Below, piece after piece: positions 29,263-58,216 of a DNA stretch of 64,000 bases. Position 1 is the first letter of the stretch; the number at the start of each line of letters is the position of its first letter. Source of the DNA: an uncultured Armatimonadetes bacterium (GTDB lineage Bacteria > Armatimonadota > Hebobacteria > Hebobacterales > Hebobacteraceae); contig OY970296.1 in NCBI GenBank assembly GCA_963716175.1, positions 2,976,001 through 3,040,000 on the forward strand, read 5' to 3'. The notes beneath the pieces were generated by a model. The model was not told the DNA's origin. It did no database searches and saw only the letters and a program-made list of their open reading frames with translations. The position numbers and the translations under genes were made by a program.

Positions 29263-32200
29263 TTTCCGGGCTGACCTTTGACTACCTCTTGCGGGTGGAC
29301 GACGATTTCGATTTCGGACTGCCTCCCGGTGCGCCCCCATCGGCCTTCTGGGTGATCGACACCCACACCAACTTCGACCGTCGGCTACAGCAGGCGCGGA
29401 GTTTCGACCTAGTCTTTGCGGCCCAGAAGGAGGGAGCGGAACGGCTTCGCCGAGAGGGCATCGAGAACTGCGAGTGGCTGCCTCTGGCATGCGATCCGGA
29501 GGTTCACCGCCGCCTGGATGTCGAGAAGGAACTCGACGTCGCATTTGTCGGTGGCATGCACCCGGGGCCGCGCCAGGAGCTGCTGTCCGCGGTGCAGCGG
29601 TGCTGTCCGAAGTCCTTTGTCGGCCAGGTCCGGCATACCGAGATGTGCCAAGTGTACAGCCGGGCAAGAATCGTCATAAACTGCTGTCTCAACAATGACC
29701 TGAACATGCGGGTGTTCGAGGCGCTGTCGTGCGGGGCGCTGCTGATCACGAATCGATTGGAGGGCAATGGGCAGGAAGAGCTGTTCAGCGATCGGGTACA
29801 CTTGGTCCAGTACGATACCATCGACGAGGCGCTCTCGCTGATCGACTACTACTTGAGGCACCCGGAAGAAGCGGAGCAGATCGCGGAGATGGGCCACCGA
29901 GAGGCGGTGGCGAAGCATACCTATCGGCACCGCATGGAGCGGGTGTTGGCGAGGATGTCGGCTTGGGCTCCGGAGCAGCTGTCGGGCGGGGCGAAGCGGG
30001 AGGGCGAGGCGCCGAAGGAGCTTGGGGCAGGACGGGATGTGAGGTACTTCCGCGGGACGGGCGTCCACCTTGGGGAACTGGTGCCCAGGAGTGCCCAGCG
30101 AGTGCTGGACGTGGGCTGTAGGGCAGGCGTATTCGGCGAGTCGCTGAAGCGCCGGCAGGGGTGCGAGGTGGTGGGGATCGAGCTTAACCGCTGGGCGGCG
30201 GAGGAGGCGCGGACAAGGCTCGACCTCGTGATGGAGGGGGACGCGGAGACGCTCGATATCGCTTCCCTAGGTTCCTTCGATGCCGTCGTGTGCGGGGACG
30301 TTCTGGAGCATCTACGGCAGCCGGAGGAGATGCTGCGGCGGATCCGCCAGGTGATGACCAAAGGCGGGGTGCTGGTTGCGAGCATTCCGAACACTCGTCA
30401 CATGGAGGTTCTGCAGCAACTCGCCGAGGGCAACTGGACTTACGAGCCGACCGGGCTGCTGGACAGAGATCACCTGCGTTTTTTCACGCGACGCAGCGCG
30501 GAGCAGATGTTTGAGGAGGCCGGCTACGAGGTGGTGGATGTCCAGGGAACACCTTCGCATGGCCATGCCGGCTGGGAGGGAGCGGGCCGCCCGAACCAGA
30601 TAAGGGCCGGCCGTTTGGTGCTGTCTGGGTTCGGGCCTGAGGAGTCCGAGGAGTTCTTCGTCGGCCAATGGCTGATCACGGCGCGCCCGTCCGAGCGCGT
30701 TGACTGGGGCCTGACGTCCATCATCATCCCTACTTGGAATCAGCTGGACTACACGCGGCTGTGCATCGAGAGCATCCGCAAGCACACGCGCCTCCCTCAC
30801 GAGATCATTGTGGTGGATAACGGATCGAGCGACGGCACGCCGGCTTGGCTCGAGTCGCTCTCGGACGTGCGTGTGATCGCGAATGCGACCAATCTCGGGT
30901 TCCCGAAGGCCTGCAACCAAGGATTGCAGGCCGCGATGGGGGCGAACCTTCTGCTTCTCAACAACGACACCGTGGTGACGCCGGGATGGCTGCGGCGCAT
31001 GCTGACCCATCTGCACGGCGCGCCCGAGGTGGGGATCGTAGGCCCACTCACGAACTACGCTGTTGGCGATCAGCAGATCGAGGTCGGCTACAAGAGCCTA
31101 CTTGAGCTGGACGGGTTCGCCTGGGATCTGGGGAGACGCAGGCGAGGCATGACGACCGCCACCGGCATGATCGTTGGCTTCTGTCTGCTCACCAAGCGCG
31201 AGGTGATCGGGCGCATCGGCCTGCTGGACGAGCAGTTTGGGATGGGCACGTTCGAGGACACGGACCTGTGCTACCGGGCGACCGCAGCTGGCTACCGTCT
31301 GCTGATATGCCAAGATGCGTTCGTGCATCACTTCGGCAGCCGGACCATGATCGGGAATCAGGTCCCCGGGGAGCAGCTGCTGGAGGAGAACCGCCTGCGA
31401 TTCGAGCGGAAGTGGGCGCTGAGTGCTCCCAAGCCAGACGTTGCGGCGGCGCCGCCGCAGCCGTCGGCGGGCCCCGCACCACCTGCCACCGAAGTGGTGG
31501 GTCGCGGGCACGGTAAGCGCCGGCGCAAAGCGAAGCGGCCACTGCCGGCTCCGGCCTCGCCCACCATCTCGTTGTGCATGATCGTGCGGGACGAGGAGGC
31601 GCACATCGCCGACTGCCTGAGGAGCGCAAAGCCCTATGTCGACGAGATGGTTGTGGTGGATACTGGGTCCAGGGACCGGACCCGGGAGATCGCGCGCTCG
31701 CTGGGGGCGAAAGTCTTCGACGCCCCCTGGGAGGACAGTTTCTCCGCCGCCCGGAACCGCTCACTCGCGCAAGCCACCGGAGAGTGGATCTTCTGGATGG
31801 ACGCGGACGATGTGTTGCCACCGGAGAGCGGGGAGCAATTGCACAGATGCGCGGCCGAGGCGCCCGAGCACGTGTTCGGGTTTATCGCACGGGTCCGCTG
31901 CCCAGCCGGGCGCAACGAGTATGGCGAGACTGTCGTCGACCACGTGAAGCTGTTCCGGAACCGGCCGGATCTCAGATTTGAGCTTCGTATCCATGAGCAG
32001 ATACTGCCCGCGATCCGCCGCGCCGGCGGGGAACTGGCCCGCGCCTCCCTGCAGGTGGTGCATGCTCACTACGATCACAGCCCGGAAGGGCAGGCGAAGA
32101 AGACCCAACGGGACCGCCGGCTGCTCGAACTCGACCTGCAGGAGAACCCCGCCCATCCGTTCGTGCATTTCAATGTGGGCATGACCGCGCTCCACGGGCG

Positions 32201-33089
32201 TGACTTCGATCGCGCCATTGCTCATCTGCGGCGCAGCATAGACCTTTCGGGGCCGCGGGAATCGCATGTTCGGAAGGCCTTCGCGCTGCTCGCCACCGCC
32301 TACCGGAGCAAGGCTGATGTGGAAGCCGCCCTGCGGGCCTGCCAAGAGGGCAGGCGCATCTACCCCGACGATCCTGAACTGGTGTTCAACGAAGGCATCT
32401 GTCACCAGATGGCCGGAAACCTGCAGCAGGCCGCGGCCGCGTTCCTCTCCATCCTGGAGCAGAGCGGCCGCTCGGACTACCTGGCCAGCATCGACGCGGG
32501 CGTTGGCTCGTATAAGGCCCGCCATAACCTGGCCGTGGTATACGACAAGCTAGGCCGGCTGCAGGAGGCCGAAGCCTGCTGGCAACAGGTGATCGATGAG
32601 CGGCCCGAATTCCTGCCAGCTTGGCTGGCGCTGGCAGAGCACCTAGCCGGTGCCAGTAGGGAAGACGATCTTACCCCTCTCGCGAGGCGAGCCCGCAGCA
32701 GCGGACGTACGCTAGCCGCGGACTTGGTCACTGGCCTGCACGCACTGCGTTGCCGAGACCTGTCGCTGGCTGAGCAGTGTTTCCGTCGGGCGGTCGAAAG
32801 CTCTCCAGACGTGGATTTCGGATTCCGTTTCCTCAGCCACGCGCTGCTGCAGCAGGGGGAGAGGGCAGAGGTGGAAGGTGTTCTCCGCCGCCTGATAGAG
32901 CTCGCCCCTGATGACGGGGAAGCCCACCACAATCTGGGCAGCCTGCTGATGGAACAGCGCCGCCTAGCGGAGGCCGCATCTGAACTCCGAAAAGCCATCG
33001 AGCTGCGGCCTGGCAACACCAGGTCGCAACACATGCTGGAAGAGGCGTCACGGCGGCTGAGTCAGGGGGTAGGTGTCGAGGGCCTGTAG
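29103..33089 (+). CDS. multidomain glycosyltransferase: CgeB-like GT, methyltransferase, GT2, GT2 and TPR repeats
   Basis: WLPLACDP, DLNMRVFEALSCG; VLDVGCRAG; SIIIPTWN, LLNNDT; ISLCMIVRDE, WMDADD; C-terminal TPRs. Confidence 0.92.
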   Translation: MDDRPPTNAFPDSAPRVAVVYDDIVRPDTTGGYCFRAMQRIAAATHLGRQEALISGLTFDYLLRVDDDFDFGLPPGAPPSAFWVIDTHTNFDRRLQQARSFDLVFAAQKEGAERLRREGIENCEWLPLACDPEVHRRLDVEKELDVAFVGGMHPGPRQELLSAVQRCCPKSFVGQVRHTEMCQVYSRARIVINCCLNNDLNMRVFEALSCGALLITNRLEGNGQEELFSDRVHLVQYDTIDEALSLIDYYLRHPEEAEQIAEMGHREAVAKHTYRHRMERVLARMSAWAPEQLSGGAKREGEAPKELGAGRDVRYFRGTGVHLGELVPRSAQRVLDVGCRAGVFGESLKRRQGCEVVGIELNRWAAEEARTRLDLVMEGDAETLDIASLGSFDAVVCGDVLEHLRQPEEMLRRIRQVMTKGGVLVASIPNTRHMEVLQQLAEGNWTYEPTGLLDRDHLRFFTRRSAEQMFEEAGYEVVDVQGTPSHGHAGWEGAGRPNQIRAGRLVLSGFGPEESEEFFVGQWLITARPSERVDWGLTSIIIPTWNQLDYTRLCIESIRKHTRLPHEIIVVDNGSSDGTPAWLESLSDVRVIANATNLGFPKACNQGLQAAMGANLLLLNNDTVVTPGWLRRMLTHLHGAPEVGIVGPLTNYAVGDQQIEVGYKSLLELDGFAWDLGRRRRGMTTATGMIVGFCLLTKREVIGRIGLLDEQFGMGTFEDTDLCYRATAAGYRLLICQDAFVHHFGSRTMIGNQVPGEQLLEENRLRFERKWALSAPKPDVAAAPPQPSAGPAPPATEVVGRGHGKRRRKAKRPLPAPASPTISLCMIVRDEEAHIADCLRSAKPYVDEMVVVDTGSRDRTREIARSLGAKVFDAPWEDSFSAARNRSLAQATGEWIFWMDADDVLPPESGEQLHRCAAEAPEHVFGFIARVRCPAGRNEYGETVVDHVKLFRNRPDLRFELRIHEQILPAIRRAGGELARASLQVVHAHYDHSPEGQAKKTQRDRRLLELDLQENPAHPFVHFNVGMTALHGRDFDRAIAHLRRSIDLSGPRESHVRKAFALLATAYRSKADVEAALRACQEGRRIYPDDPELVFNEGICHQMAGNLQQAAAAFLSILEQSGRSDYLASIDAGVGSYKARHNLAVVYDKLGRLQEAEACWQQVIDERPEFLPAWLALAEHLAGASREDDLTPLARRARSSGRTLAADLVTGLHALRCRDLSLAEQCFRRAVESSPDVDFGFRFLSHALLQQGERAEVEGVLRRLIELAPDDGEAHHNLGSLLMEQRRLAEAASELRKAIELRPGNTRSQHMLEEASRRLSQGVGVEGL

Positions 33090-34028: not shown

Positions 34029-34809
34029 ATGGATCCACCGGAGACAGGGAAGACGCCTGACTCGTTGCGGGCAGCGGTGGTTGCTGAGTACGCACCCGAG
34101 TGGCTTGCCTGTAAGGTGTTCAGGGACTGGTCCAGTGGGGCGGCCTTGGGGACGCCGGAGCGTTACGGGCGTATCTCAAAGCTGCGTCGAGCCCGCGTGA
34201 GCTCACTTGCCAAGGCCCTCTCCCAGTGGACGCAAGGACGCTACGGCGAAGCACAGGCTCGCGCGCTCATCGCAGCCTTCGCGGAAGTCTCTCTCCCTGC
34301 GCAGTTGGAAGAAGCCTACTCTCAGGTGATCTGGTCTCTCGTCTCCCAGATTCGCGGTCTGATCGCGGGGAAAGGGCAACTGCGCGCGCTCGTCGCGGCG
34401 GAGAGCGAATCCCTGCCCGCGGTGGCGGTGCTCCAGTCCGAATTCGGCTACGGCCCGGGAACAGCCGCCGTCATCGTTTCCGAGGTAGGTGACATGGCCG
34501 ACTTCCCCAGAGAAGCAGCCTTCGCTACCTACTGTGGGGTGACTCCGCTCAAACGCAGGTCTGGGGTCTCCCGCGGCGCTGCACGCCTCTCGCGCTTCAC
34601 TAACAAGCGGCTGCTGCGAGCGGTCACGCAGGCGGCGCTGACAGCTGCGACCCACCACGCAGAGTCCCGACTCTACTACCAGAAGAAGCTGGCCGGCCGA
34701 TCCGCGCACCAAGACGCTCGCCCTCATCGCGCTCGCGCGGCATCGTGCCCGGCGGCTCTACAAGGTACTGCGACGTGCGTCGTTACCGTCGGCGGAGGTC
34801 GCCGCGTAA
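34029..34809 (+). mobile_element. IS110-family transposase remnant (5'-truncated, frameshift near 34700)
   Basis: GYGPGTAAVIVSEVGD..F..AAFATYCGVTP..RSG, NKRLLRA. Alternate frame gives ALIALARHRARRLYKVL..*. Confidence 0.85.
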
Positions 34810-34814
34810 CGTGA

Positions 34815-35299
34815 GTGTACCTCGTCTTCTTCCTGGAGATCGGCACCCGTCGGATCATCCACTGGAACGCCTCTACCTCCCCGGACGAGGCCTGGGTGCA
34901 CCAACAGTTCCGGAACCTGTCCGTGGTGAACGACGGCCTGCCCAGGTATCTCATCCACGACCGGGACAGCAAGTACACCCGACATGCGGACTCCTTGCTA
35001 GAGGACACGGGCACCAAAGTGATCCGGTTGCCAGCAAGGTCTCCCAATCTAACGGCTATGCGGAACGCTGGATTCGCAGCCTACGGCAAGAGTGCTTGGA
35101 CCGGATCATTATCCTCAACGAAGCCCATCTACGCTGGGTGCTGGCTGAATACGTCCGCTACTACAACCAGCACCGGCCCCATCAATCGCTGCAGCATCTG
35201 CCGCCGGAGGCCCCGGACGCCTATCCGCGTGAGGGCAAGATCGTTGCCCGCCCGGTGCTCGGCGGCCTCATTAACGACTACTGCCGCCTCGCCGCCTGA
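34815..35299 (+). mobile_element. rve integrase-core transposase remnant (frameshifted)
   Basis: YLIHDRDSKY..PARSPNL, then after a frame change NGYAERWIRSLRQECLD..YYNQHRPHQSL..PVLGGLINDY. Confidence 0.85.
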
Positions 35300-35563: not shown

Positions 35564-38500
35564 CTACTTGCTACCGTTCGCGGAGGATCGGCTCATACGA
35601 CGCTGCTGAAGCCTTGCGCACTCCTCTTGGATGAGCGCGACTTCTGAGCGCGATAGGCCAAGGCCCTCCCGGAGGACCAGCCCATCCAGCTCGCTCCACA
35701 CGTTGGGATGAGCGCCCGGTTTCCTCAGGGCTTTGTCAAGCCGCGCCAGCTTTGCACTGATCCGGTCTACTACTCTCTGCGGGAACTTCTCCAGGTTTGG
35801 AAGGATCGCAGCTCGCGCGTCACGTGGCTCCAGCTTGAGTAGCCCGCCGCCATAGCCGCGCCCAACAAGCTCCAGGCTAAGCCCAGTGAGCGAGGAGTAG
35901 AACGACGCCAGGTAGGGCTTGACGAGGTCGCGGTGCGTCGTGAAGGACACGTGATGCAGTGTGTTGGTACTGTTGACCTTGGCTTCGTTCATGGTCATGC
36001 GGCACCGCCTGCCCGACATGTAGGTCAGAAAAGCATCAGGGGACGGCGGGTACGGCACGGAGTACCAAGGCCATCGCGTACGGCACTTGTACCTAAGGTG
36101 GACCCCCATTCGGTGTCCCTCGTCCAGGTACCTAGCGAGTTCCTCGTCAGCAGCAATGTCTGCGTCAGGCGGAACTCGCAGCAGCAGGTGCTGTGCATCC
36201 GCTTTCCGCAGTCTCGCCAGGTCCTCGCGCGAGAAGACCGCTCCTGCCACGTGGCTGGCGCTGGTGAGGACGGGCTTCAGCCACCCTCTCCTGATGCCTC
36301 TGGCCCGCGCGGCGCTGGGCGCTAGCGTGTAGAACTTAACATCGCCCGTGACGAGCCCGATGCCCACATTCGCCACACTCGCAAAGGGCAGAGCAAGCCC
36401 GCGTTCGATCAGCGACTCAAGGAGATCAAGCACATCCTGGCTGGTGAGCAGCGCCGTCCATTTCGTCGCTTGCCATCCCTGGCGCGCCTCAGGTGCGGCC
36501 GACGCGCGCTCCAGTGATCCTGCAAGGTCATCTGCCCCGCGCACCTCTGTGCGTCTCATCCCAGCCGCATCGGACGCGCTGGCCAGTAGCAGCAGCACAT
36601 CCTGCTGTTTCTCGAATACTCGGCCCTCGAAGAGCACGAACGACAGGCTTCGAAAGCGTTTCCGCAGGAATCTGCGCACAGGTTCAGCATAGTCTGCGGT
36701 TAGCAGCTCTGTCGGCAGTACCATGGCGAGGCGGCCCTGGGGGCGGAGGAAAGCCGTGGCGTGCAGCAGGTATGGCGCCCATGAACTGGCACTCGGCGAG
36801 AGTCGTGCATCCGGCCCAAGAGTGGCATTAAGGACCTTGTTCGCCGCTTCAAGCGCACGGGCGCGATCCGCTCCTTTGAACCGGTGGGCACGGACATACG
36901 GTGGGTTACCCACAACTGCATCAATACCGTGCGAAGGCCCGACGTCGCCAGGGGATACTGAGAAGAAATCGTCGCGGACCATGTGGTTGGCCGGCAGGCG
37001 CTGCCGTCCTCTCCACAGCTCCGCGAACTGGCGCCAAGCCAGTGCGTCCATCTCAACGCCGTAGACGTGCTGCCCGATGGCGTCGCGGCCAGCACCCAAC
37101 GACGACAGCCTGTCACAAGCCTCACGCAGGAACTCTCCGTCACCAGATGCCGGGTCCAGAACGGCATCTGACCGGTTCCTCACCGCCCAGGAGACCAGGA
37201 ACCTAACTATGCCGGTAGGCGTGGCGACCGCGCCGCGGATCTTCGCCGCTGCGCTTGCGAACAGACTCTCTCCGTCTGACGCCATGCTGTCGGCGGGCGA
37301 CGTGCTAGGCAGGGCAGGTATGGAGACGGTGCGAAGCCGCGGTGCCACCGATGGCGGCACAAACACGTCGGCGAACGGCTCGTAGCGGCGACTCGCCTTG
37401 TAGCTCCTCGCAATGTCGTCCAGGGAGATGGAGCCAAAGAGATCGCGGGTGGGCGGCTGGGCGAACCGGAATGACTTGCGAATGGCGGAGTGGATGATCA
37501 CAAGCGCAGGAGGGACTCCCAGGTCGCGCGCGAGAATCTCTTCCAGATACCGGCTCTGCAGTTGAGCGGACTGGTGCCGAGCAACTCTCCCGGAGGACGC
37601 GTCGCCGTTGGCAACCGAGTTCCCCTCACCATGCTGAGAGGACTCGCGTCGGGGGCGACCGCCGGACAGCCGGGCCGTCAGCGACAGGTGAACTAGCGGC
37701 GCTGATTCACTGGCGGACACGAACAGAGTGCCTGTCTCGAGTTGATTCAGGATGTGGCGGGCCGTCTCATGTCCTGCGATGCGCCGGTAGACCTGTGTGT
37801 CGGTCATGCGCAGGAACACCTTGGTCGATCCCAGCCGCAAGGTCGGATCAGACTCACTGGGACTCGATACGTCCCCGGGCCCTGGGAAGGCTAGCTCCAA
37901 CGCGCGGGTTAGCATTGCCTCCGCCGCCATTCCGCGAGGTGAGTAGATAAAGCCCTCGTATATCCTGCGCTCAAGCTCAAAGAAGTCACGGACTAGCGCT
38001 TCCGTATCCGACCCGGCATCCAGCAGAAGGTTCGGGCCGACCTTGCGGAACGCTTGGGCGAGGGCCACCGGCTCGGGGTAGGGCAGGCCAACCGACCTTG
38101 CAGTGCGGGTGACTCCCTCGAGCGCGTCGACTGACAGAGTCCCGTTCACGAGCAGGTTGAGCACTGCCACCTCGTCGCCGGGTGGCATCAAGGCGGAGTC
38201 CGCTCTACCCGCCCGCGATGGCGCTAGCGCCCCCGCCAGAAGGTCCCTCGCCATCGCGATCTGCGACGCCAGCTCCGGCTGTCCTTCCGAGCGCATGTCC
38301 CTGGAGAACTCGGAGGCCAACCTCCGGGCATCGCCTTGGTGGAACCTGCCTAGGCGCTTCCGGAGGAAGACTTCGGCACCATGCGATAGCGCCGTATGGC
38401 CTATGTCATGTAGTAGTGAAGCCAGGACTATCAGGGTAATAGATCGATCGCTTAGGGCGAGGGCCTCCGCTATGGTCCGGCTCAGTTCGGCCACCGCGAG

Positions 38501-38680
38501 CGAGTGCTCGTATCGCGAGTATGAGCGCTGCAACTTGACGACGTACTCCATCGTGCCGAGGAGCCGGATATCTTTGAGGCGCTGCAGGTACCCGCGATCC
38601 AGCACCGGAGCCAGGCCCATTGCCCGCAGCCTGTTCTCGATGGCCTGCACCGAATCGAGTGGGTGCTGCTCTTCAGCCAT
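35564..38680 (-). CDS. HD-domain (SAMHD1-like) phosphohydrolase fused to an N6-adenine DNA methyltransferase with target-recognition domain
   Basis: LQRLKDIRLLG, SRYEHSL, LLHDIGH; VLDPASGDG, VVGNPPY, GRGYGGGLLKLEP. ATG at 38680 overlaps the upstream stop. Confidence 0.88.
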   Translation of the reverse strand: MAEEQHPLDSVQAIENRLRAMGLAPVLDRGYLQRLKDIRLLGTMEYVVKLQRSYSRYEHSLAVAELSRTIAEALALSDRSITLIVLASLLHDIGHTALSHGAEVFLRKRLGRFHQGDARRLASEFSRDMRSEGQPELASQIAMARDLLAGALAPSRAGRADSALMPPGDEVAVLNLLVNGTLSVDALEGVTRTARSVGLPYPEPVALAQAFRKVGPNLLLDAGSDTEALVRDFFELERRIYEGFIYSPRGMAAEAMLTRALELAFPGPGDVSSPSESDPTLRLGSTKVFLRMTDTQVYRRIAGHETARHILNQLETGTLFVSASESAPLVHLSLTARLSGGRPRRESSQHGEGNSVANGDASSGRVARHQSAQLQSRYLEEILARDLGVPPALVIIHSAIRKSFRFAQPPTRDLFGSISLDDIARSYKASRRYEPFADVFVPPSVAPRLRTVSIPALPSTSPADSMASDGESLFASAAAKIRGAVATPTGIVRFLVSWAVRNRSDAVLDPASGDGEFLREACDRLSSLGAGRDAIGQHVYGVEMDALAWRQFAELWRGRQRLPANHMVRDDFFSVSPGDVGPSHGIDAVVGNPPYVRAHRFKGADRARALEAANKVLNATLGPDARLSPSASSWAPYLLHATAFLRPQGRLAMVLPTELLTADYAEPVRRFLRKRFRSLSFVLFEGRVFEKQQDVLLLLASASDAAGMRRTEVRGADDLAGSLERASAAPEARQGWQATKWTALLTSQDVLDLLESLIERGLALPFASVANVGIGLVTGDVKFYTLAPSAARARGIRRGWLKPVLTSASHVAGAVFSREDLARLRKADAQHLLLRVPPDADIAADEELARYLDEGHRMGVHLRYKCRTRWPWYSVPYPPSPDAFLTYMSGRRCRMTMNEAKVNSTNTLHHVSFTTHRDLVKPYLASFYSSLTGLSLELVGRGYGGGLLKLEPRDARAAILPNLEKFPQRVVDRISAKLARLDKALRKPGAHPNVWSELDGLVLREGLGLSRSEVALIQEECARLQQRRMSRSSANGSK

Positions 38681-39953
38681 GGGGTGCTTCTGCCTCGCCG
38701 GATGGTGAGGGGGGCATTGCTTGGCCGACCTCAATGTATGCGCGGTGCTGCCACTCGACCCACCGCGTCGGTGCCACCGGATGGAACCCGCCAGGGCGCG
38801 ATTGGTCCGGCATCTCGATCTCCACACCAGGAAACCAGTTGAAGATGCTGAACTGAAAGGAATCGGCGAGCACTCTGTCCTTTAACCTCCTGGCGAATGC
38901 GATGGTCCGCGTCACGCTACCGTCAGTGTCAAACGGGAAGCCGACTATGAACCCGGCGGAGACGCTGATACCCGCATCCCGAAGCACCGCGAGGGCGTCC
39001 TCCGCCTGGCCCAAGTCAACGCGCTTATGTATGCGCTGGAGAATTTCGGGATCGCCCGACTCCAGCCCTACATAGACTCGGTGGCAGCCTGCCCGCGCCA
39101 TCTCGCGAGCAAGGTCGGCGTTGACTGCGTCAACTCGTGCGTTGCAGAACCACGTCACACTCCGCTGCAGCCCGCGGATGCCTTCACAAAGCCGAGCAGC
39201 ATATTCCCGGTCAGCCATGAAGTCGGGATCAACGAACGATAGTTCGCGGATTCCTCGGTCGCCCGTCAAGTACTCTACCTCAATCAGAACACTCTCGGCA
39301 GACCGCACGCGTCGGCGGCTACCGCTGATCGCCGGTACGCTGCAGAAGGCGCAGCGGTACGGACATCCCCGCTGGGCCTCGATGATAGTGACGGGCGTCT
39401 GGACGCAGTCTGGACTCCAGTAGTGTGAGAAGTCCGGAACCAAGTCCCATGCTGGCATCGGCACGCGCGAGAGTTCGGCCGCCTGTCTCCTCGGGTGCAC
39501 CTGATCCCCCCTGCAGAAGACGCCCGGGATACCCGACAGGCTGCCGCCCGATGACAGCCTCTTACACAGGTCTCGCATGATCGGCTCGCCGTCACCTACT
39601 GCCGCCATATCGAACTCTGCACTCTCGAGGGCGACATCCGGCGCCGCTGTTGGGAGCGGCCCTCCCACGATCACCGCCACGCTGTGTGCAGCCTTCGCAG
39701 CCGCGGCAAAGCGCCGGACCGGTGCGACGGTCAATGTTGACAGGGTCATTCCCACCAGGTCCGGCATCCAGCCGTCGAGACCGGCCAGAACTCCGTTGTC
39801 GTCAACTCCGCGCGCATCCGCATCAACAAGTCGCATGTCAGCGATATCTCTGATGCAGGCGGCAATGTAGAGCAGACCCAAAGGAGGCAGCCGGGTCTCA
39901 CACCTGGTGAAGCCGGCCTGCACGCCCTTCGGCTGGACCAACAGCACATTCAT
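38673..39953 (-). CDS. B12-binding radical SAM protein (class B methylase-like)
   Basis: PPLGLLYIAA, VIVGGPLPT, RGCPYRCAFC, VGLESG, FIVGFP. Confidence 0.9.
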   Translation of the reverse strand: MNVLLVQPKGVQAGFTRCETRLPPLGLLYIAACIRDIADMRLVDADARGVDDNGVLAGLDGWMPDLVGMTLSTLTVAPVRRFAAAAKAAHSVAVIVGGPLPTAAPDVALESAEFDMAAVGDGEPIMRDLCKRLSSGGSLSGIPGVFCRGDQVHPRRQAAELSRVPMPAWDLVPDFSHYWSPDCVQTPVTIIEAQRGCPYRCAFCSVPAISGSRRRVRSAESVLIEVEYLTGDRGIRELSFVDPDFMADREYAARLCEGIRGLQRSVTWFCNARVDAVNADLAREMARAGCHRVYVGLESGDPEILQRIHKRVDLGQAEDALAVLRDAGISVSAGFIVGFPFDTDGSVTRTIAFARRLKDRVLADSFQFSIFNWFPGVEIEMPDQSRPGGFHPVAPTRWVEWQHRAYIEVGQAMPPSPSGEAEAPHG

Positions 39954-40927
39954 GCCTTCCAGGTCCTCGCCATTATCGTGAACACAAGCGCCGCCGCGAA
40001 TATCGCACCGGGGATGTACAGCGTCTCAACGCCGCTCTTGCCTGAGAACACAGGAGTGACGTTGGAGAGGAGCCACACGGCCATGCCAATGAAAAGCCCT
40101 GACCCAAGCCACGATATCTGGAGCAAACGCCTGCGCGAAGAGCCGCGGCTCTCCTCGTACCTTTCCAGGACCCGCTTAATCTCGGCTGCGTCCGCCGGTG
40201 TGCGCGCGTTTGCGCGCAGAAAACTCATCATGTCCTCTGCCTGCCGATCGCGTTGACTCTGCACCTTCTCAGCCACTGCCTGTCGCACAGACGGGTCTTC
40301 GGCCTTCAGGCCGCTCTGACGCAGTATCCGCTGCACCTCTGAGTCGAGAGCGATCCGTGACGGCGTCATCTGTGACTCGAACAGATACCGAGAGTCATCT
40401 CGGTCCGGGTAGCCGACGGAGGCCGGTCTCGACAGCGCGACTATAATGAGCTGGCAGATGCTCATGTACGGCCGGATCGACACCGGGAAGCTGTTATGGT
40501 TCGCTAGCTGCAGCACCAGGTTACCGTCCTGTCCGGGGTTTATGAAGTCGTTAGCGAAATGCACCGACAGGCCGAGCCGGGCGAAGCTGCTACGAGCTAC
40601 GATCCGGCCTGCCACTGTCTTGGACAGTACGATACGCTCGAGGGTCGGCGCGAACAGCACCTCACCTGGCTCAAGGGTGACCTCTTCCCCGGAACTTGCT
40701 GGCGGCAGGGCTTCGAAGAGCGCTTGTGTCTGTGCCTCTGGTGCCGCCGCATCAGCCTTCCTGACGTCCTTCTTGTACCTGGTGAACCGGTTTCCGACGC
40801 GGATATCGACAGACGCGAAACGAATCTGCTTGTCCGGCTCGAATGGGTGATGCTGCGGGTCCGTGGAGATGATCTTCACATCGCCGGACGTGATGGCCGC
40901 CTTTATGTCTACGTCCGATAGGTACAT
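39950..40927 (-). CDS. dcd: dCTP deaminase-like protein with substituted catalytic residues and a C-terminal two-TM extension
   Basis: MYLSDVDI, ASVDIRVG, ARSSFARLGL, INPG..LVLQLAN, ICQL; two hydrophobic C-terminal helices; GGAGG RBS. Confidence 0.8.
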   Translation of the reverse strand: MYLSDVDIKAAITSGDVKIISTDPQHHPFEPDKQIRFASVDIRVGNRFTRYKKDVRKADAAAPEAQTQALFEALPPASSGEEVTLEPGEVLFAPTLERIVLSKTVAGRIVARSSFARLGLSVHFANDFINPGQDGNLVLQLANHNSFPVSIRPYMSICQLIIVALSRPASVGYPDRDDSRYLFESQMTPSRIALDSEVQRILRQSGLKAEDPSVRQAVAEKVQSQRDRQAEDMMSFLRANARTPADAAEIKRVLERYEESRGSSRRRLLQISWLGSGLFIGMAVWLLSNVTPVFSGKSGVETLYIPGAIFAAALVFTIMARTWKA

Positions 40928-41856
40928 GTCACCCCTCCATTACGCGGCATTGTTCTCTCATTCGGCTCATCGTGAAATGTTACCTGCGGCTACGCCCTTG
41001 TGCGGCTCGCGCACGGATGGCTGGGAGAGAACACATGTGCGCAGGGGGCCTCGGCCATAGCACGGTAGAGAAACCTATACCCGTGCTTTCTCGCGGGGAA
41101 CGCGGCTCAGAGAGGCTACAGCGGCGACGGCCAATGGCCGCCGCCGCTGTCTCTTGCATCGCTCGGGCCTAGCCACCAACGCAGGCGTACGCCCCTGTTA
41201 GCTCCTCCTTCGGCACTGGGATCGAAAAGGACAGGAGCATCGGTAGCCCGTCAGGAATGTAGTCCCGTTTTCCCCGGTGTTTCTGCACCGCATACCGCGA
41301 ACATGGTCCCCCCGATTACTATCGGCTTCACGATACCGGGTTTCGGCATGTTCGAGACGTGGCGGCGGCGGCGCATCCGGACATGACCCGCGGAAAGAAG
41401 CCATAGCTGCGTTTCGTGCCTGCTGTAGCGGTTAGTCCCCCGTGGAACCGCCATAGCCTTGCCTTGACCAGCTTTCCCGGTCTATCGTGGGCAACGCCAT
41501 CTTGCTGGGGGATGAACCCACGTGGAAGGCGCTGGGACCTCGATCTGCTTGGTAATGAAGGCGGTGCTGCTCAGTGTAGGTGTCGGGCGCTTGCAGGACC
41601 GCTAGCGTTAGATCTGTGACTCCCTGGGCTGCCTCCTCTGGCTGATCAGGCGACGAGTTTGCCTGTCAAGGCCCTGTAGGGCCGGCGCGAGAGAGCAGGA
41701 GACCTGTCTGTACACGTCGAGCGTGAACGGACTGCGCTCACGAGATGACGAACCTGGTGGCCGACACACAGTTTCTGGGGAAACGGCTGTTTGTCGCGTC
41801 ATAACATTGGGTATGGCGCCAGCCCAGGGCGGGGGGGAGCGCCGAGCGCGTCTACC

Positions 41857-44800
41857 CTAGCCGATCGGCAGTTCCTGGTCGCCCCGCCGACCCCTTCGCC
41901 GCCTGACCGGTTGCTTAGCAGCATGACCCAGGAGGTCCCATACAAGCTCGTCGATCCCGACACGCTCGGAGGTGAGGATGCGTCTGACCTCCGAACGCTG
42001 ACGTCCTATGTCGCCTTGCGTGATCTGCGGGGCCAGCGCGGCGACTGCTCGGTGGCATTCCTTGCTCAGCGTCGCGAGCCTTTCGTGGGTCGCGTTGGCC
42101 GCATCGTAGCGGGGAATAGGGAGCACCTCGAACGGGAGCCGTGTTATGTCACGTTCGCCCCATTGTCCACTTGTTTGGTACGGCTTTATCGCCTGGTTCA
42201 CAGCACTGGAGTTTAGCAGTGAGCAGAGGTAGTGCGCCTCATCTTCGTCCTTCGTCTCGTAGTAGTAGGTGACCATGTCCGCCGCAAATCCGTTCACGCG
42301 CAGTCCGCCAGCATCCAGCGCCCTGTTGGCGTTCACGACGCATGCCGTGAGGTGGGTGCCGGACTTGTTGTACAGAAGCTTATAGCGCCCCTTGAGAACC
42401 TGGCAGGTGAGGGTATGCTGGTAGTCGAGGCGATTGTAGATCGTCCTCTCCGTAGTCGTTTTCTTGTTGTCAGCCCAAGCGGCTTCTGTCTTCGCTAGCC
42501 ACTCGGCCAGGGCCGGGTACCCCGCGGAAAGGGCGGCCTCTCGAGTAAGGAGGCCCATGTTCGTGCCTCTCCTTATGGGCTGCAGCGGGAGGACGACCAG
42601 GTCCAAGGTGAGGTGACCGAACGGCAGCAGATGCTTCCCGAGGAGAGTCGCGTAGAGGAAATCCGCCTCCACCGGGCCCTCGAAGCGCATGTCCCTCCAG
42701 GGCGTCTTGGCGTCCTTCTGAATGTCTGGGGTGGTCTCCACGTATGGTCGTTCCGGGCTAACTGTTCCCCACTCGTCTCTAGCGGCCGGCCGAACAAACC
42801 AGAAGCAACGCGGGAATATCGAGGCGCCTGCCCTGAGCGAACTCCAGTAATGGCTTGCTGCCGTCTGTGGGAGGGGCGAGTAGCTCTCCTGATCCATTCG
42901 AAGGATCGGTCTAGCGAGATCCCATACCAGGTTCCTTGCTGGCAGGCTGCCGGTGGCCCTGAGCATCGGGATGTTGGCGGCAAGCGTCTTGCCTTTCGTC
43001 CGCACAAGCAGGCACGCGGGGACGTTGAACAGAGGGGCGATGCCCTCGAGGTCCACCCCGCGTGTGAAGCCGAGGCGCTGGAAGGTGAGGTGTTGTTTGG
43101 CGCCGGTCAGCGTGCTCTTGGGCATGACGAACGCGAGGGTACCTTTCGGGCCCACGTATCTTCCGAAGGAGAACTCGTAGAAAAGCGTAGAGGTGTCCAT
43201 CACCGTGAACAGCTTCACATCTGACTTATCGAGCAAGCCATGCCGGAAGACAAGCTTCTTGACCTGCGCCTGGTACCGGGCGTCCTGGATGTAACGGTAG
43301 GCCAGCCATGGTGGGTTTCCGACGACGAAGTTGAACCGCCTGTTGGAGAGGTAGATGGGGCGGTAGGCGTTGCGGAGGATGAAACCCCAGACAGTGTCCC
43401 GGTTCTGCCGAACAAGCCGGATCATCAGCTTGAGGTTATCCTGCCAGAGGGCAAGCCCCATGGAATCGCCATGGCGCCACTTCCTCGCCACGTACTCGCG
43501 GAATCCGGGTGTCAAGACTCGTTCGCCCTCGGGCCTGCGTGCGTAATCGCACATCGTGTCAATGACGTCGTCAAGAAGGATGGGCGACTTGGCCATGCTG
43601 GCTGGTATATGAAAGTACTGCTCGACTTCTTCTCTGCGGCGCCCAGTGAAGCGCTCCTCGGTACCGACAAGGATCCTGATGGGCGCGCTACCTTGGCGGC
43701 TCTCCTCCTGCAACAAAGCGTCCGCCATGTAGACGGGGATGGTGATGTTCCCCTTGTGCTGCTTCAGGTCGGGAGCAAGCGCGAGGGCGTAGTTGACCCG
43801 GGAAATCGTGACAGCGAGGGGATGGACGTCCACCCCCATGATGTTCCTCTGGGCGTAGGTCGCAAGAAGCGTGCCGCGCCTGCGAGCCCGCCGCGCTTGT
43901 CGAATAGCCACGAAGAGGAAAGTGCCCGATCCACAGGCGGGGTCCAAGACACTGCCCTTGCCTTTGTAGCCCGCCTCGGTTAAGGTCAGTTCGGCCAGCC
44001 AGTCAGGGGTGTAGAACTCGCCAAGGTCGTGTCGAGTCTCGGGGTCCACTAGACCCTGGTATAGCTCCTTGAGGAGGTCCTCGTTGATCTTGGCCGGGCT
44101 GTAGATGTACAGGTGTTGGAGCATGCCGTTGAGCAACTGGACGGCGTCGTTTCTCACGGCATCGCTCAGCACCCACGCGAAGAAGTCTTCTTCGGCAAGG
44201 TTGAGCAACCCGTTGCGCCGGAACACCTCGCCGTCAACGATCTCCGTGAGGGACCGAGCGCCTCGCGGATGGCGTTTGAACAGGGCCAGGTAGGCCAGCA
44301 CCTTGGCGAGGAGGGAGAGGTAGGTGTGCCGGATGAACAAGTCCTGAGTCCCAACCTCACGGCTGCCGTAGACCTTAGCCAAGAGGCTGTTCCATTCGGC
44401 GAACTTTACCTGGGTAGTCCCATCCTCCTTGAGGTGCTCCAACATGCCAAGCAGGCTGGCGGAGGCGGCTGAGAAGACGGCGCTGTCCGCGCCGAACCTC
44501 CTTAGAACATCGGCGGAGGTGGGCGCGAGGTTCTTTTGCGAGAATAGGAAACTGTCAAACCAGAGGAGAGCTGCGTCCGGAGCGTCAGCTTCGAGGCGCT
44601 GCAGATCAACAGGCTGCCCGACCGGCCGCAGGGTGTCTTCGTGCAGCGCGTATACCTCGAACGTGATTCCATCGGTGATGATGCCGAAGCCGTGTTTCGG
44701 CACCTGAGGTGATCTCAGGTACTTGCTGAGTTCACGCTTGCCTGTATCCCTCTCGGCCTCGAGATCACGCTTGAACTCGAAGACAAGATCGCGATAGAGC

Positions 44801-45000
44801 GCGTCGATCCTGCCACGCAGCTTAAGGGCCTCGACGCCCCTCTCGATGCTGATTTCTTCTGGCTCTATACCAAAGGCACGTTCGATGAACCCAAGGAACA
44901 GATGCCGACGGTAGTCGTGAGCCTGTCTATCCTTCCGCGCTCTTTCGGCGACTCGGACGTACTTCCCCAGTTCCTCAAAGAAGCGGTCGCGTCTCGCCAC
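41857..45000 (-). CDS. type IIG restriction-modification enzyme (fused endonuclease, N6-adenine methyltransferase and TRD)
   Basis: GRIDAL..VFEFKR (PD-(D/E)xK), LGEFYTP, LDPACGSGTF, VVGNPPW. Confidence 0.88.
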   Translation of the reverse strand: MARRDRFFEELGKYVRVAERARKDRQAHDYRRHLFLGFIERAFGIEPEEISIERGVEALKLRGRIDALYRDLVFEFKRDLEAERDTGKRELSKYLRSPQVPKHGFGIITDGITFEVYALHEDTLRPVGQPVDLQRLEADAPDAALLWFDSFLFSQKNLAPTSADVLRRFGADSAVFSAASASLLGMLEHLKEDGTTQVKFAEWNSLLAKVYGSREVGTQDLFIRHTYLSLLAKVLAYLALFKRHPRGARSLTEIVDGEVFRRNGLLNLAEEDFFAWVLSDAVRNDAVQLLNGMLQHLYIYSPAKINEDLLKELYQGLVDPETRHDLGEFYTPDWLAELTLTEAGYKGKGSVLDPACGSGTFLFVAIRQARRARRRGTLLATYAQRNIMGVDVHPLAVTISRVNYALALAPDLKQHKGNITIPVYMADALLQEESRQGSAPIRILVGTEERFTGRRREEVEQYFHIPASMAKSPILLDDVIDTMCDYARRPEGERVLTPGFREYVARKWRHGDSMGLALWQDNLKLMIRLVRQNRDTVWGFILRNAYRPIYLSNRRFNFVVGNPPWLAYRYIQDARYQAQVKKLVFRHGLLDKSDVKLFTVMDTSTLFYEFSFGRYVGPKGTLAFVMPKSTLTGAKQHLTFQRLGFTRGVDLEGIAPLFNVPACLLVRTKGKTLAANIPMLRATGSLPARNLVWDLARPILRMDQESYSPLPQTAASHYWSSLRAGASIFPRCFWFVRPAARDEWGTVSPERPYVETTPDIQKDAKTPWRDMRFEGPVEADFLYATLLGKHLLPFGHLTLDLVVLPLQPIRRGTNMGLLTREAALSAGYPALAEWLAKTEAAWADNKKTTTERTIYNRLDYQHTLTCQVLKGRYKLLYNKSGTHLTACVVNANRALDAGGLRVNGFAADMVTYYYETKDEDEAHYLCSLLNSSAVNQAIKPYQTSGQWGERDITRLPFEVLPIPRYDAANATHERLATLSKECHRAVAALAPQITQGDIGRQRSEVRRILTSERVGIDELVWDLLGHAAKQPVRRRRGRRGDQELPIG

Positions 45001-45702: not shown

Positions 45703-47895
45703 TCAAGAGCGCCACTGGAGGTACGAGATGATGCCGGCGGCTACTGTGGCGATGCCCATGATCCAGAACCAGATTCGGACGAATCCCAACGGGAGGGCGA
45801 GCGCTAGCCCGCATGCAAGGGCTCCGCCCACCTCATAGAGGCTCTTCGCCCATCGTGGCCAGTGAACCCACGGAAGCAGCAGGTAGCCAATGAGAATACC
45901 ACACGATATGGCTAACCATCCTGCCCATTTGGCAACGCCGAGTGTCCTGGCCAGCCTAAGCTCCGCACTCCTGGCGCGGTCCGCCTCTTTCGTTTCGCCA
46001 CTCTGCGCTTCGGTGAGCATCGTCTCTAGACTCACCTTCTCCGTTGCCAGATCTTCCTGCATTGCCTCCGCTGCCTGCCTTCGCTGGCGCTCATGGGCCA
46101 ACTCGCCTTCGAGTTCCTGTAAGTGCAGATCTCTGACTCTCGTCTGCCCCTTGAGCCGGAGGTACTCCTGCTCCGCCAGTTCCTGGGCCCGTTTCGCGGC
46201 CCATGTCTGCTGCTGCAGTAGACTCAGAGAGCGCGCAATTGCTGCGTCTACCTGGTGATCACGCGCATCTTCAGACGCAGGCGCCCGAAGGCTAGCTGCG
46301 AGGCGCTCATCAACCATCGTGAGAACGGCGGCCTGTGCGGCGACCGCCTCATCTATTCCTGCTTCGATCGCATAGCGGTCGATGCGAGCACAGACGCGTT
46401 GCGCAGCCTCCGACGGAAGGCGAGCGATCGTCCCGATGAAGGGGCAAGCAACCAACTGGGCGAAAGCCCTATCGTAGTCGGCGGTCCTGGGGAGCGCCCA
46501 TCGCGTCATCTGCATGCAGTGGTCCGGATGGATACAGAATGGGATCTCGTTGCCGTCTTCTCGCCGTCGAATCCAATCATACCGTCTGAGTTTCCCGTCA
46601 CATGTTACGAACCATGCGCGAGCTCGCGCAAAGGATGTGGTGTCCCCGCGGAGTCTGAGGATGAGCAGTCGGTGGAATGCATCGTGGGTGATGATCTCGC
46701 CGTGCACGCCCGGGTCGCGTGCCGCCAGGAGCACAGCGCCTTCCTCCTGGGGAAGCGAAGGTGTGGCCATCGCGTCATCGTGCGGGTTATCGTCGACCAT
46801 TACGCCGAGTTGAGGAAGCAGCGCGTCGACGTTCCGAGCTCTGGCTGCAAACTCATCGACGCTGACCCCCGTACGCGCGTACTCGTCATAGTAGAGGCTG
46901 ACGAAGTCTTGCTCCGATGAGGCCCTGGCGGCAAGAGCGGCGAGTGTGCGTGACGCAATAGGATGCGCCCTGATCCGCTCAATGTTCGCCCGCAGCGATG
47001 TCCGCAACTCCTTGAGCGTTCTCTGCGAGACAAGGAGCTTGCCCCCAATCTGTCTGATAACATCTGCGAGCGTCCGGATCTGGAAGAAGTGCTGGGGGCC
47101 CTGCAGGTTGAGCAGACGGTACAGGACGTTCGTGTCAAGGTAGAAGAGGGTGCCCTGGAAAACGCCCCTGACGAGAGATGAGCACTTCGGATCAATGTGA
47201 GCAGTATGTACGATGCAGGCGTTGTCGAGTAAGCGGGTCAAGTAAAGGGCACGGTCACCTTCGGCGTCCAGCCAGAATGCCGTGAGTGTCTCGCGCCGCA
47301 TGCCCATCAGGTGCTGATCCACCGGCGGCAGGGAAGAGAAGATGCCTTCGATCGTTGGTGCCAGCTTCCCTTCGCTCGGCGGCGGCCCCGCGCCTAGCAG
47401 CGCCTGGGTCTGGGCACCGTAGCGGAGTAGCACTTGCCGGTTGAACGCCTGCTGGTCAGTGAGGAGTCGAGACAGTTCCTGGTCAGTGAGCGACGGGTAC
47501 TGCTCCTGCAGGTGGATGTGCCAGGCATCCATGACACGTCCCTCGAGTCGGTCCGCTTCTTCGATTGCCTGCTCGAGAGCACGTCGGTGCTCGGGGGTCA
47601 GGTTGTACTTCGGATCTCGGCGCCCTGAGTGGCTAATGCGCCGTCCTCGCCGCTTGCTGACTGACCTCAGAACGTGGCGGATCTCTGCAGGCTCAAATCG
47701 CAGTCCGAAGTCCGCCTCGATCGCCGAAGAGATCTCGCTTGGGCTGTAGGACTCATCGCTAGGGAGGCTCCAGAGAGCCCTCTCCACGAACCCCATTGTG
47801 ATCTGGTCAGCAAGTGGTGTTCCGGGCTCGAACGCCCCGATGTGGAGAAGCCTGCGAATAGCTTCATAGCGAGCAGGTCCGCCTAAGGCTGTCAT
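45703..47895 (-). CDS. PIN-domain protein with C-terminal coiled coil and TM helices (defence-island-like)
   Basis: FYLDTNVLY, HDAFH, FVTCD; coiled-coil stretch then hydrophobic helices at the C-terminus. Confidence 0.7.
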   Translation of the reverse strand: MTALGGPARYEAIRRLLHIGAFEPGTPLADQITMGFVERALWSLPSDESYSPSEISSAIEADFGLRFEPAEIRHVLRSVSKRRGRRISHSGRRDPKYNLTPEHRRALEQAIEEADRLEGRVMDAWHIHLQEQYPSLTDQELSRLLTDQQAFNRQVLLRYGAQTQALLGAGPPPSEGKLAPTIEGIFSSLPPVDQHLMGMRRETLTAFWLDAEGDRALYLTRLLDNACIVHTAHIDPKCSSLVRGVFQGTLFYLDTNVLYRLLNLQGPQHFFQIRTLADVIRQIGGKLLVSQRTLKELRTSLRANIERIRAHPIASRTLAALAARASSEQDFVSLYYDEYARTGVSVDEFAARARNVDALLPQLGVMVDDNPHDDAMATPSLPQEEGAVLLAARDPGVHGEIITHDAFHRLLILRLRGDTTSFARARAWFVTCDGKLRRYDWIRRREDGNEIPFCIHPDHCMQMTRWALPRTADYDRAFAQLVACPFIGTIARLPSEAAQRVCARIDRYAIEAGIDEAVAAQAAVLTMVDERLAASLRAPASEDARDHQVDAAIARSLSLLQQQTWAAKRAQELAEQEYLRLKGQTRVRDLHLQELEGELAHERQRRQAAEAMQEDLATEKVSLETMLTEAQSGETKEADRARSAELRLARTLGVAKWAGWLAISCGILIGYLLLPWVHWPRWAKSLYEVGGALACGLALALPLGFVRIWFWIMGIATVAAGIISYLQWRS

Positions 47896-55901: not shown

Positions 55902-55956
55902 CGCACACCCCCCTGATGCAGCAATACCGGACCCCCTCGAAGCGGCCCGTGGCGAC

Positions 55957-55985
55957 AGTATAGCGCGGCGCCAGGTGTAGGACAA
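55957..55985 (-). promoter_or_regulatory. sigma70-type promoter
   Basis: TTGTCC-N17-TATACT on the minus strand, upstream of 55901. Confidence 0.65.
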
Positions 55986-58055: not shown

Positions 58056-58216
58056 GCACGCCTCCTCTGGTGGATGGTTGCGGCATGACATGAATCACTT
58101 CAAGCGGCGAACAAGTCCAGGCCTTTGTGCAAGTATTCTGTGGGGTGGGCCCTAGTGCGGGTATTTCGTATCCCCTCGATTTCGGGCCAGGATGGCTCTA
58201 GGAGCCACGAGAAGAG

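Follow-up and report, generated by a model that had tools for sequence, protein, structure and literature searches.

A cassette of three overlapping genes

Within a 64,000-nt stretch of the genome of an uncultured Armatimonadetes bacterium (assembly GCA_963716175.1, contig OY970296.1, positions 2,976,001–3,040,000 of the forward strand; hereafter the window, in whose coordinates positions are given), three minus-strand open reading frames (ORFs) form a compact cassette. In the direction of reading they encode a protein with the fold of dCTP deaminase (Dcd) and two C-terminal transmembrane (TM) helices (Dcd-2TM; 39950–40927, 325 aa, P0001), a radical S-adenosylmethionine (rSAM) enzyme with an N-terminal B12-binding-type Rossmann domain (38673–39953, 426 aa, P0002), and a fusion of an HD phosphohydrolase module to a DNA methyltransferase (HD-MTase; frame 35564–38827, P0124). 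The rSAM and HD-MTase genes recur side by side on independent contigs, and the Dcd-fold protein has lost the catalytic residues of its family. We read the cassette, with a probability of roughly 45%, as a methylation-gated, nucleotide-directed anti-phage system.

The genes are tightly packed. The stop codon of the Dcd gene and the start codon of the rSAM gene share the letters ATGA (39950–39953), and the end of the rSAM gene overlaps the ATG of the HD-MTase by 8 nt (ATGGCTGA, 38673–38680). Both junctions were read directly and agree with an earlier interpretation made from the letters alone (the sequence-only reading), which had described three minus-strand genes with overlapping stop and start codons. 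The same holds for its placing of the HD-MTase start at the ATG at 38680, giving a protein of 1038 aa: the alignment of orthologues begins exactly there, not at an upstream GTG. A GGAGG lies 6–7 nt 5' of the Dcd ATG. Scans with Pfam, NCBIfam and PADLOC recovered the domains that had been assigned to the three genes.

The encoded proteins

The HD-MTase fusion has the topology of a type IIG restriction-modification (R-M) enzyme in which a module of dNTPase type takes the position of the nuclease. It consists of a SAMHD1/EF1143-like HD phosphohydrolase module (residues 1–345, 37646–38680), assigned from its motif, PDB matches and Foldseek; an HD-associated helical/beta region and linker, delimited from the secondary structure of the model (residues 346–470, 37271–37645); a gamma-class N6-adenine DNA methyltransferase domain (36467–37270); and a target recognition domain (TRD) of the M.Eco57I C-terminal type with a C-terminal helix (35564–36466, stop codon included). 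The corresponding Pfam matches are HD (1.9e-9), N6_Mtase (1.6e-11), Eco57I (7e-8) and M_Eco57I_C (4.5e-11). As in type IIG/IIL enzymes of the MmeI and Eco57I type, an N-terminal effector precedes a gamma-class N6-adenine MTase (with its motifs I and IV) and a C-terminal TRD in one chain, and the cassette likewise sits in an R-M island. Unlike them, the fusion matches neither PD-(D/E)xK nor any other nuclease family, so that an endonuclease domain is missing from the type IIG plan; its N-terminal 470 aa are instead SAMHD1-like HD, and it has an obligate rSAM partner.

The HD residues R56, H59, H91-D92, H95, H100, E103, H114 and D185 are all (nine of nine) invariant in 31 sequences, and the HDxGHxxxSH-type signature aligns with that of SAMHD1-type proteins (PDB matches 2hek, 9mr6 and SAMHD1). 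A model of the module (predicted local distance difference test score, pLDDT, 88.8; predicted template modelling score 0.90) was matched by Foldseek to BT4208, fungal and human SAMHD1, 2hek (Aquifex O67745) and EF1143 (E 5e-10 to 3e-9, template modelling scores 0.49–0.57), with no nuclease-type HD among the listed fold matches. The model points to a SAMHD1-family phosphohydrolase rather than a Cas3-type nuclease, with an activity that is predicted. The module has in common with the SAMHD1, EF1143 and Dgt dNTPases, including anti-phage dGTPases, the H...HD...D metal site and the fold of the whole module, and differs from them in its fusion to a DNA MTase and TRD and in scoring far below the curated family cut-offs. 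HD_assoc_2 was detected in related fusions.

The nearest relatives of the HD module are stand-alone proteins of ~400 aa and P-loop (AAA_28)-HD fusions. In three of the latter (P0176, P0181 and P0182, 585–608 aa) an AAA_28 domain, P-loop and NadR-kinase-like, lies N-terminal to the same HD family; a kinase-plus-nucleotide-enzyme layout is also known from anti-phage dCTP deaminases. In a single representative of 911 aa (P0228) the same HD module is joined to a radical SAM domain of the B12 type, whose motif is CxxxxCxxC-like. This one Rosetta-stone fusion hints that HD and rSAM act together, also outside the MTase context.

The MTase domain carries motif I (VLDPASGDGEFL) and a motif IV NPPY at residues 592–595 (36896–36907). 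Residues D509/P510/G513 (DPxxGxG) and N592/P593/P594 (NPPY), belonging to motifs I and IV respectively, are invariant in 15 sequences, and a PDB sequence search also matched the domain to M.TaqI and M.BseCI. In PADLOC 2.0 the fusion gave a generic MTase_II match (7.4e-102), mad2 (6.4e-20) and a weak dGTPase match (2.8e-8); the NCBIfam MAD2 model scored 38 bits against a cut-off of 720. The MTase/TRD half is 31–33% identical to stand-alone MTases of 550–600 aa, which were matched in 40 of the 400 other phylum genomes. At least five of eight such loci inspected in the phylum (L120–L127) have a stand-alone MTase followed by a Pfam-less ORF of ~237 aa; these pairs are inserted beside differing housekeeping genes and have the appearance of a type II R-M family not yet characterised. 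A complex prediction for the HD module with the rSAM enzyme scored 0.00, a value that counts neither for nor against binding.

The second protein, P0002, can be assigned as a B12-domain radical SAM enzyme; cobalamin use is predicted, and methylation should not be assumed. It matches B12-binding PF02310 (5.8e-14; 52.4 bits against a cut-off of 32.1) and Radical_SAM PF04055 (7.5e-26), and displays the cluster motif, TIM-barrel core and N-terminal Rossmann B12-binding domain of class B rSAM enzymes. The CxxxCxxC motif is formed by C197, C201 and C204 (39342–39365), cysteines that are invariant in 11 orthologues. The best PDB sequence match was AprD4 (6fd2, 1e-33), and a model of the protein (pLDDT 78) was again closest to AprD4 in Foldseek (template modelling score 0.70, 27% identity), followed among its relatives by MgmA, TsrM, OxsB, CysS and TokK. 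OxsB itself was matched at E 1.3e-8 by PDB sequence and with TMq 0.65 and TMt 0.40 by fold.

AprD4 is thus the nearest solved relative by sequence and fold, and the two share a two-domain layout. They differ in that AprD4 acts on an aminoglycoside and that P0002 scores far below the AprD4 family cut-off (128 bits against 500), as it does below every cut-off among the curated NCBIfam models. The general statement of the sequence-only reading that B12 rSAM enzymes methylate unactivated atoms is an unsafe guide here, AprD4 being a 1,2-diol dehydratase and not a methylase. By analogy with AprD4, a dehydratase-type attack on a sugar diol is at least conceivable. PADLOC 2.0 gave only a weak PDC-M51A match (1.7e-11) over the core of the enzyme.

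The Dcd-fold protein consists of a Dcd domain (residues 1–193), a helical linker (~195–265) and two hydrophobic C-terminal segments found by hydropathy scan, TM1 (residues 268–286, 40070–40126) and TM2 (residues 302–320, 39968–40024). The domain matches DCD PF22769 (6e-34), passes the equivalog cut-off of TIGR02274 (131.8 bits against 92.8) and aligns with E. coli Dcd (1xs1) at E 1.7e-22. In that alignment its active-site stretch FINPGQDGNLVLQ (40508–40540), which corresponds to IDPGWSGCIVLE of the E. coli enzyme, has Asn130 in place of the Asp of the Dcd IDPG motif and Gln140 in place of Glu138, a residue that we take to be catalytic in E. coli Dcd and at which an engineered PDB variant (2v9x) also departs from wild type. 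The RSSxARLG nucleotide-binding motif is kept. These exchanges are a family trait: of 13 long Dcd family members, 12 have N and 11 have Q at the respective positions, and of 47 ordinary short Dcds taken as a control (14 from phylum genomes and 33 from viral contigs), 45 have D and 46 have E. Among these 47, a single further protein deviates, a Dcd-like one on a viral contig (L157, match 8001–8501) with Asn and Leu at the two catalytic positions.

The long, TM-bearing family is a conserved pseudo-deaminase, one that most likely continues to bind a pyrimidine nucleotide; since both catalytic acids are lost, the Dcd-2TM protein is probably a nucleotide binder and not a deaminase. The view of the Dcd-fold TM protein as a sensor, already put forward in the sequence-only reading, gains real support from the amides that replace catalytic acids across the long family. 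Compared with Dcd and the anti-phage dCTP deaminases, the protein has the Dcd fold and nucleotide-binding motif but Asn/Gln for the catalytic Asp/Glu and a 130-aa extension with two TM helices, and no PADLOC 2.0 model, those of anti-phage dCTP deaminases included, matched it. The TM effectors of CBASS, Pycsar and type III CRISPR systems (Cap15-type, Csx23-type) consist of a cytoplasmic nucleotide-binding domain followed by a few TM helices. The Dcd-2TM protein resembles this logic in joining a nucleotide-binding-type domain to a few TM helices, and differs in that its putative sensor fold is Dcd/dUTPase-like and that no cyclase is present. In the literature searched, we found no description of a Dcd/dUTPase-like fold as a defence sensor.

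TM tails also occur in a wider family of Dcd proteins of about 290–350 aa; the close homologues (48–63% identity) are four proteins on short contigs. The search of viral contigs with the Dcd family gave one long form among 34 mostly ordinary phage Dcds. This protein of 334 aa (L145:3381–4385, plus strand), a member of the pseudo-deaminase/TM family, stands alone; its neighbours, judged by eye, are terminase large subunit-like and ParB-type DNA methylase-like, and it is possibly a prophage-borne exclusion gene. The plasmid search yielded no full-length Dcd-2TM, only housekeeping dcd.

A housekeeping role as Dcd was rejected for the cassette protein, given its lost catalytic residues and the finding of Dcd-2TM in none of 400 other phylum genomes searched (14 of them of the same family), where the TM-bearing part has no match. 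Elsewhere in the genome there is a single DCD-type match (G000:C1:835472–835720, L144), weaker and partial (E 5e-13). Since no Dcd match at E ≤ 1e-35 was seen in the organism's family (14 genomes), the lineage may be without a canonical Dcd.

Linkage, rarity and genomic context

The rSAM orthologues form a close group, and the fusion is very rare. The rSAM search gave 447 matches, and among the best 120, which were listed, an orthologue group of 13 proteins at 52–58% identity is followed by a drop to ≤35%. A word-indexed search across 5.8 billion clusters brought up 14 HD-MTase fusions besides this one, six at 44–46% and eight at 34–39% identity. With the HD module as query, an exhaustive HMMER search of 1.84 billion representatives found 1436 matches at E ≤ 1e-3, only 12 of them at E ≤ 1e-30; the best 150, those listed, include six fusions of about 970–1000 aa. 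Catalytic motifs are conserved across orthologues that are 34–58% identical.

The HD-MTase frame lies directly downstream of the rSAM gene in all four loci fetched for the linkage count, those in which the rSAM is ≥39% identical (L009, L030, L031 and L043). Five of the six close fusions are on contigs equal in size to the contig of a close rSAM (162332, 9445, 6345, 11073 and 29379 nt); two of these contigs are L009 and L030, and the three further pairs are read from the match in size alone. Counting the window, the pair is seen or deduced on at least eight contigs. Because this adjacency recurs on independent contigs, the gene arrangement is more than chance, and co-occurrence elsewhere, a check set beforehand, has been found for the rSAM and HD-MTase genes. 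The two very probably form a functional unit that has not been described. The conserved core is an rSAM gene followed by, and translationally coupled to, HD-MTase, and the Dcd-2TM gene is accessory but recurrent. One apparent HD-MTase proximity (in G068) was judged coincidental, a fucosidase gene lying between.

The Dcd-2TM gene is upstream of the pair in the window. A homologue is on a contig of 7464 nt, equal in size to that of the rSAM P0010, which suggests co-occurrence there. In L009 a Dcd-fold protein with two C-terminal hydrophobic helices, 22% identical to the version in the window, is encoded downstream of the fusion. Since this version is so divergent and occupies another position, the Dcd-2TM architecture has been recruited twice.

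None of the 400 other phylum genomes has a match covering the HD half of the fusion, and the best rSAM match in 40 relatives is only 34% identical. L009 is a contig labelled archaeal (from a Bathyarchaeia-labelled metagenome-assembled genome) and L030 a contig labelled bacterial. The cassette was not found in the 400 phylum genomes, and related cassettes lie on both bacterial- and archaeal-labelled contigs; it is rare, horizontally acquired and mobile.

Its surroundings in the window are those of a genomic island. Directly downstream of the operon, on the plus strand, lie insertion sequence (IS) remnants (34029–35299), namely the C-terminal domain only of an IS110 element (34029–34814; PF02371, 2.1e-19) and an rve_3 integrase-core fragment (34745–35299; PF13683, 2.5e-15). 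Upstream is a non-coding spacer of 929 nt (40928–41856), presumably the promoter region, with no ORF of ≥80 aa. The sole Rfam match to the spacer at E ≤ 1 was at chance level, and neither a cobalamin riboswitch nor any other Rfam element was found upstream. We found no sigma-70-like promoter site and no convincing terminator for the operon, and no meaningful repeats flanking the cassette. Beyond the spacer, and outside the cassette, is a minus-strand gene for an MmeI-like type IIG R-M enzyme (41857–45000; PADLOC REase_MTase_IIG 1.8e-86; Pfam MmeI_N, N6_Mtase and Eco57I). In L009 the pair is flanked by a Gp49/helix-turn-helix toxin-antitoxin-like pair and a weak Cas4-like ORF.

The gene that adjoins the type IIG gene (45703–47895, minus strand) encodes a protein of 730 aa with several C-terminal hydrophobic segments (residues 659–726) and no PADLOC match; it may be another defence gene of the island. 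The sequence-only reading had placed the cassette between IS remnants and a type IIG gene with a PIN-TM gene: the remnants and the type IIG gene are indeed there, and the PIN label is only sub-threshold (E 0.0057; 17.7 bits against a cut-off of 23.6). Bordering the island on its other side is a plus-strand gene (29103–33089) for a multidomain protein of 1328 aa, which combines glycosyltransferase domains (one family 1-like, another of family 2) with TPR repeats and a methyltransferase domain. Farther off, the window holds two tandem minus-strand genes for large surface proteins with FG-GAP, CarboxypepD_reg and SLH domains (49098–53117 and 53295–55985) and a bacterial class A RNase P RNA (58214–58609, minus strand, 282.9 bits).

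Proposed function and its alternatives

The sequence-only reading had expected that no named system would be recognised, and PADLOC 2.0 returned only generic or weak matches: for the named anti-phage systems of PADLOC-DB 2.0 (pVip, dCTP deaminase, dGTPase, BREX and MADS), no protein-level match was sufficient for membership. The composition of PADLOC PDC-M51 lay outside this comparison and might include a related cassette. Likewise, no description of the gene combination was found in the literature searched, where supplementary candidate lists (the more than 500 systems of the Ophion paper) might hold a related cassette. On its domains, motifs and scores, the cassette falls outside type IIG R-M systems, functional Dcd, curated dGTPases, the OxsB/OxsA pair and every PADLOC 2.0 system tested. 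We rate it as a candidate methylase-linked defence with non-nuclease effectors; that it belongs to a new category altogether is a genuine possibility, though an unproven one.

The closest parallels in chemistry come from other pairs of rSAM enzymes and phosphoesterases. The cassette HD is a 470-aa SAMHD1-like module; OxsA, the HD partner of OxsB, is a small protein. OxsB is described as a cobalamin-dependent rSAM enzyme of four domains and 744 aa that needs the HD phosphohydrolase OxsA to make the antiviral nucleoside oxetanocin from dATP (PMC13331322). Ophion is a validated three-gene defence made up of a viperin-like rSAM enzyme, a PHP phosphoesterase and a phosphoribosyltransferase (bioRxiv 10.1101/2025.09.30.679545). 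OxsB/OxsA, the viperins and Ophion share the action of an rSAM enzyme and a phosphoesterase on nucleotides with an antiviral outcome, and the cassette likewise pairs an rSAM with an HD protein. It differs from all of them in its MTase/TRD and its Dcd-fold TM protein. From OxsB/OxsA, to which it does not belong, it is further set apart by an rSAM enzyme that OxsB matches only distantly, and from Ophion by the viperin-like rSAM, PHP and phosphoribosyltransferase of that system.

Because a dNTPase-type module replaces the nuclease, and neither the operon nor the 929-nt spacer upstream of it encodes a nuclease, we propose that the cassette may couple the reading of DNA methylation to nucleotide chemistry. 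The MTase/TRD half would methylate adenines at a specific sequence of the host, marking self, and would sense whether DNA is methylated. Invading DNA that is unmethylated would lead the HD module and the rSAM enzyme to deplete (deoxy)nucleotides or, alternatively, to turn one nucleotide into an aberrant form, as viperins and OxsB/OxsA do. The pseudo-Dcd would be a trimeric binder of pyrimidine nucleotides that reads the product or the state of the pool, and its two TM helices would deliver an effect on the membrane when the ligand appears or disappears. The analysis shows the identities of the domains, the conserved catalytic motifs of rSAM, HD and MTase, the lost catalytic residues of the Dcd, the conserved linkage and the horizontal acquisition; the defence role, the methylation gating, the substrate and the membrane outcome we infer. 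The interpretation in the sequence-only reading is partly supported: the unnamed combination, its co-occurrence and the idea of a sensor have stood, and nucleotide chemistry of the rSAM and HD proteins, product sensing and abortive infection are putative.

A bolder form of this proposal, which we consider improbable, is an R-M-like sensor with a chemical instead of a nucleolytic output, in which HD and rSAM, on foreign DNA, would make from a (deoxy)nucleotide a non-canonical one that both poisons replication and gates the trimeric pseudo-Dcd, which then opens or perturbs the membrane. If true, it would be a class of immunity in its own right, would bring R-M, viperin-like and second-messenger logics into one cassette and make the Dcd fold a new sensor domain.

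Several observations weigh against a nucleotide-directed defence of this kind. The defence context is thin, and in L030 it is a flagellar FliP gene that adjoins the pair. No copy of the fusion was found on the viral contigs searched, and the plasmid search for the HD region gave only one partial HD match and no full-length HD module. The substrate of the rSAM enzyme is not readable from its sequence, and its relatives include the protein-modifying MgmA; the HD module scores 30.1 bits against a cut-off of 393 for the best curated dGTPase model in NCBIfam. The eight distant fusions match no contig size of the 120 listed rSAM proteins, so the fusion may work without the rSAM enzyme, and among ten stand-alone HD relatives in the phylum none has a P0002-like rSAM within ~6 kb. 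In L030 the pair has no Dcd-2TM gene at its side, and in L043 the ~800 nt upstream of it yielded none; of the three-gene unit envisaged at the outset, the rSAM and HD-MTase remain as obligate members, and Dcd-2TM is not always present. Since a member of its family occurs alone on the viral contig L145, the Dcd-TM protein may act independently and be only loosely tied to the rSAM/HD chemistry.

In one alternative explanation the fusion is a type IIG-like enzyme that uses HD as its nuclease, the rSAM enzyme serves as a maturase, either altering the fusion post-translationally or supplying it with a cofactor, and Dcd-2TM is an independent single-gene abortive-infection or exclusion module in the same island. 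The effector-MTase-TRD order of type IIG enzymes and an operon without a separate nuclease are what it would lead one to expect, as are structural relatives of the rSAM that include the protein-side-chain methylase MgmA, a Dcd-TM relative that stands alone on L145, the L030 pair without a Dcd gene, and a distant HD-MTase subgroup with no linked rSAM among those listed. We nevertheless think it unlikely: the HD motif and fold are those of the SAMHD1/EF1143 triphosphohydrolases, and the fold matches listed include no nuclease-type HD; the presence beside the same pair, in differing positions, of two Dcd-fold 2TM proteins that look unrelated argues against mere co-travel; and the ATGA overlap couples Dcd-2TM to the rSAM gene. 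That unrelated genes without a joint function came to lie together by chance, in an island rich in junk, is hardly credible; this reading could draw on the IS remnants and other island genes nearby and on the great rarity of the family, but is contradicted by the rSAM/HD-MTase adjacency on those eight or more contigs, by the overlapping stop and start codons, and by the retention of all catalytic motifs across the divergent orthologues.

Two further explanations keep the nucleotide chemistry and give it another end. Pathways of base hypermodification include radical SAM enzymes, and the cassette could be a DNA hypermodification or epigenetic system, the alternative named in the sequence-only reading, in which the rSAM, HD and Dcd-like proteins produce or process an unusual (deoxy)pyrimidine nucleotide, or alter a base in DNA, and the MTase/TRD targets or complements the mark. 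Every part touches nucleotides or DNA, and the presence of a TRD with the MTase implies that it acts on DNA at specific sequences; yet a membrane-anchored Dcd-like protein without the catalytic Asp/Glu is a poor fit with a biosynthetic enzyme, no conserved glycosyltransferase, kinase, transglycosylase or polymerase-type partner was present in the loci seen, and the cassette was not found on the viral contigs searched, where hypermodification pathways are common. We regard this explanation as improbable. Quite improbable, finally, is an oxetanocin-like biosynthesis of a nucleoside analogue with self-resistance, in which rSAM and HD would make an exported toxic nucleoside from a dNTP and Dcd-2TM and MTase would protect self. 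The precedent of a cobalamin-dependent rSAM and an HD phosphohydrolase acting on dATP (PMC13331322), the presence of OxsB among both sequence and fold matches of the rSAM, and the existence of the HD-rSAM fusion P0228 would suit it. Against this, the nearest rSAM relative is AprD4 and not OxsB, a 470-aa SAMHD1-like HD fused to a DNA MTase with a TRD has no role in the biosynthetic scheme, the loci seen hold no conserved transporter or tailoring genes, and the island context is one of R-M and IS elements.

Should a methylation-gated, nucleotide-directed defence be correct, the cassette would, within the literature searched, be the first case of a sequence-specific DNA methylase module coupled to a dNTP-hydrolase-type effector and an rSAM enzyme instead of a nuclease, and R-M logic would extend to nucleotide chemistry. 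Its rSAM would then join the short list of B12-domain rSAM enzymes with a probable nucleotide substrate, beside the viperins and OxsB/AlsB, and such enzymes are a possible source of new antiviral nucleoside analogues. Dcd-2TM proteins will be mis-annotated as dCTP deaminases, since they pass the TIGR02274 cut-off in spite of being membrane-anchored and without catalytic residues; correcting this annotation is useful whether or not the defence hypothesis holds. Being very rare, the family has a small ecological weight, and its value is conceptual and enzymological.

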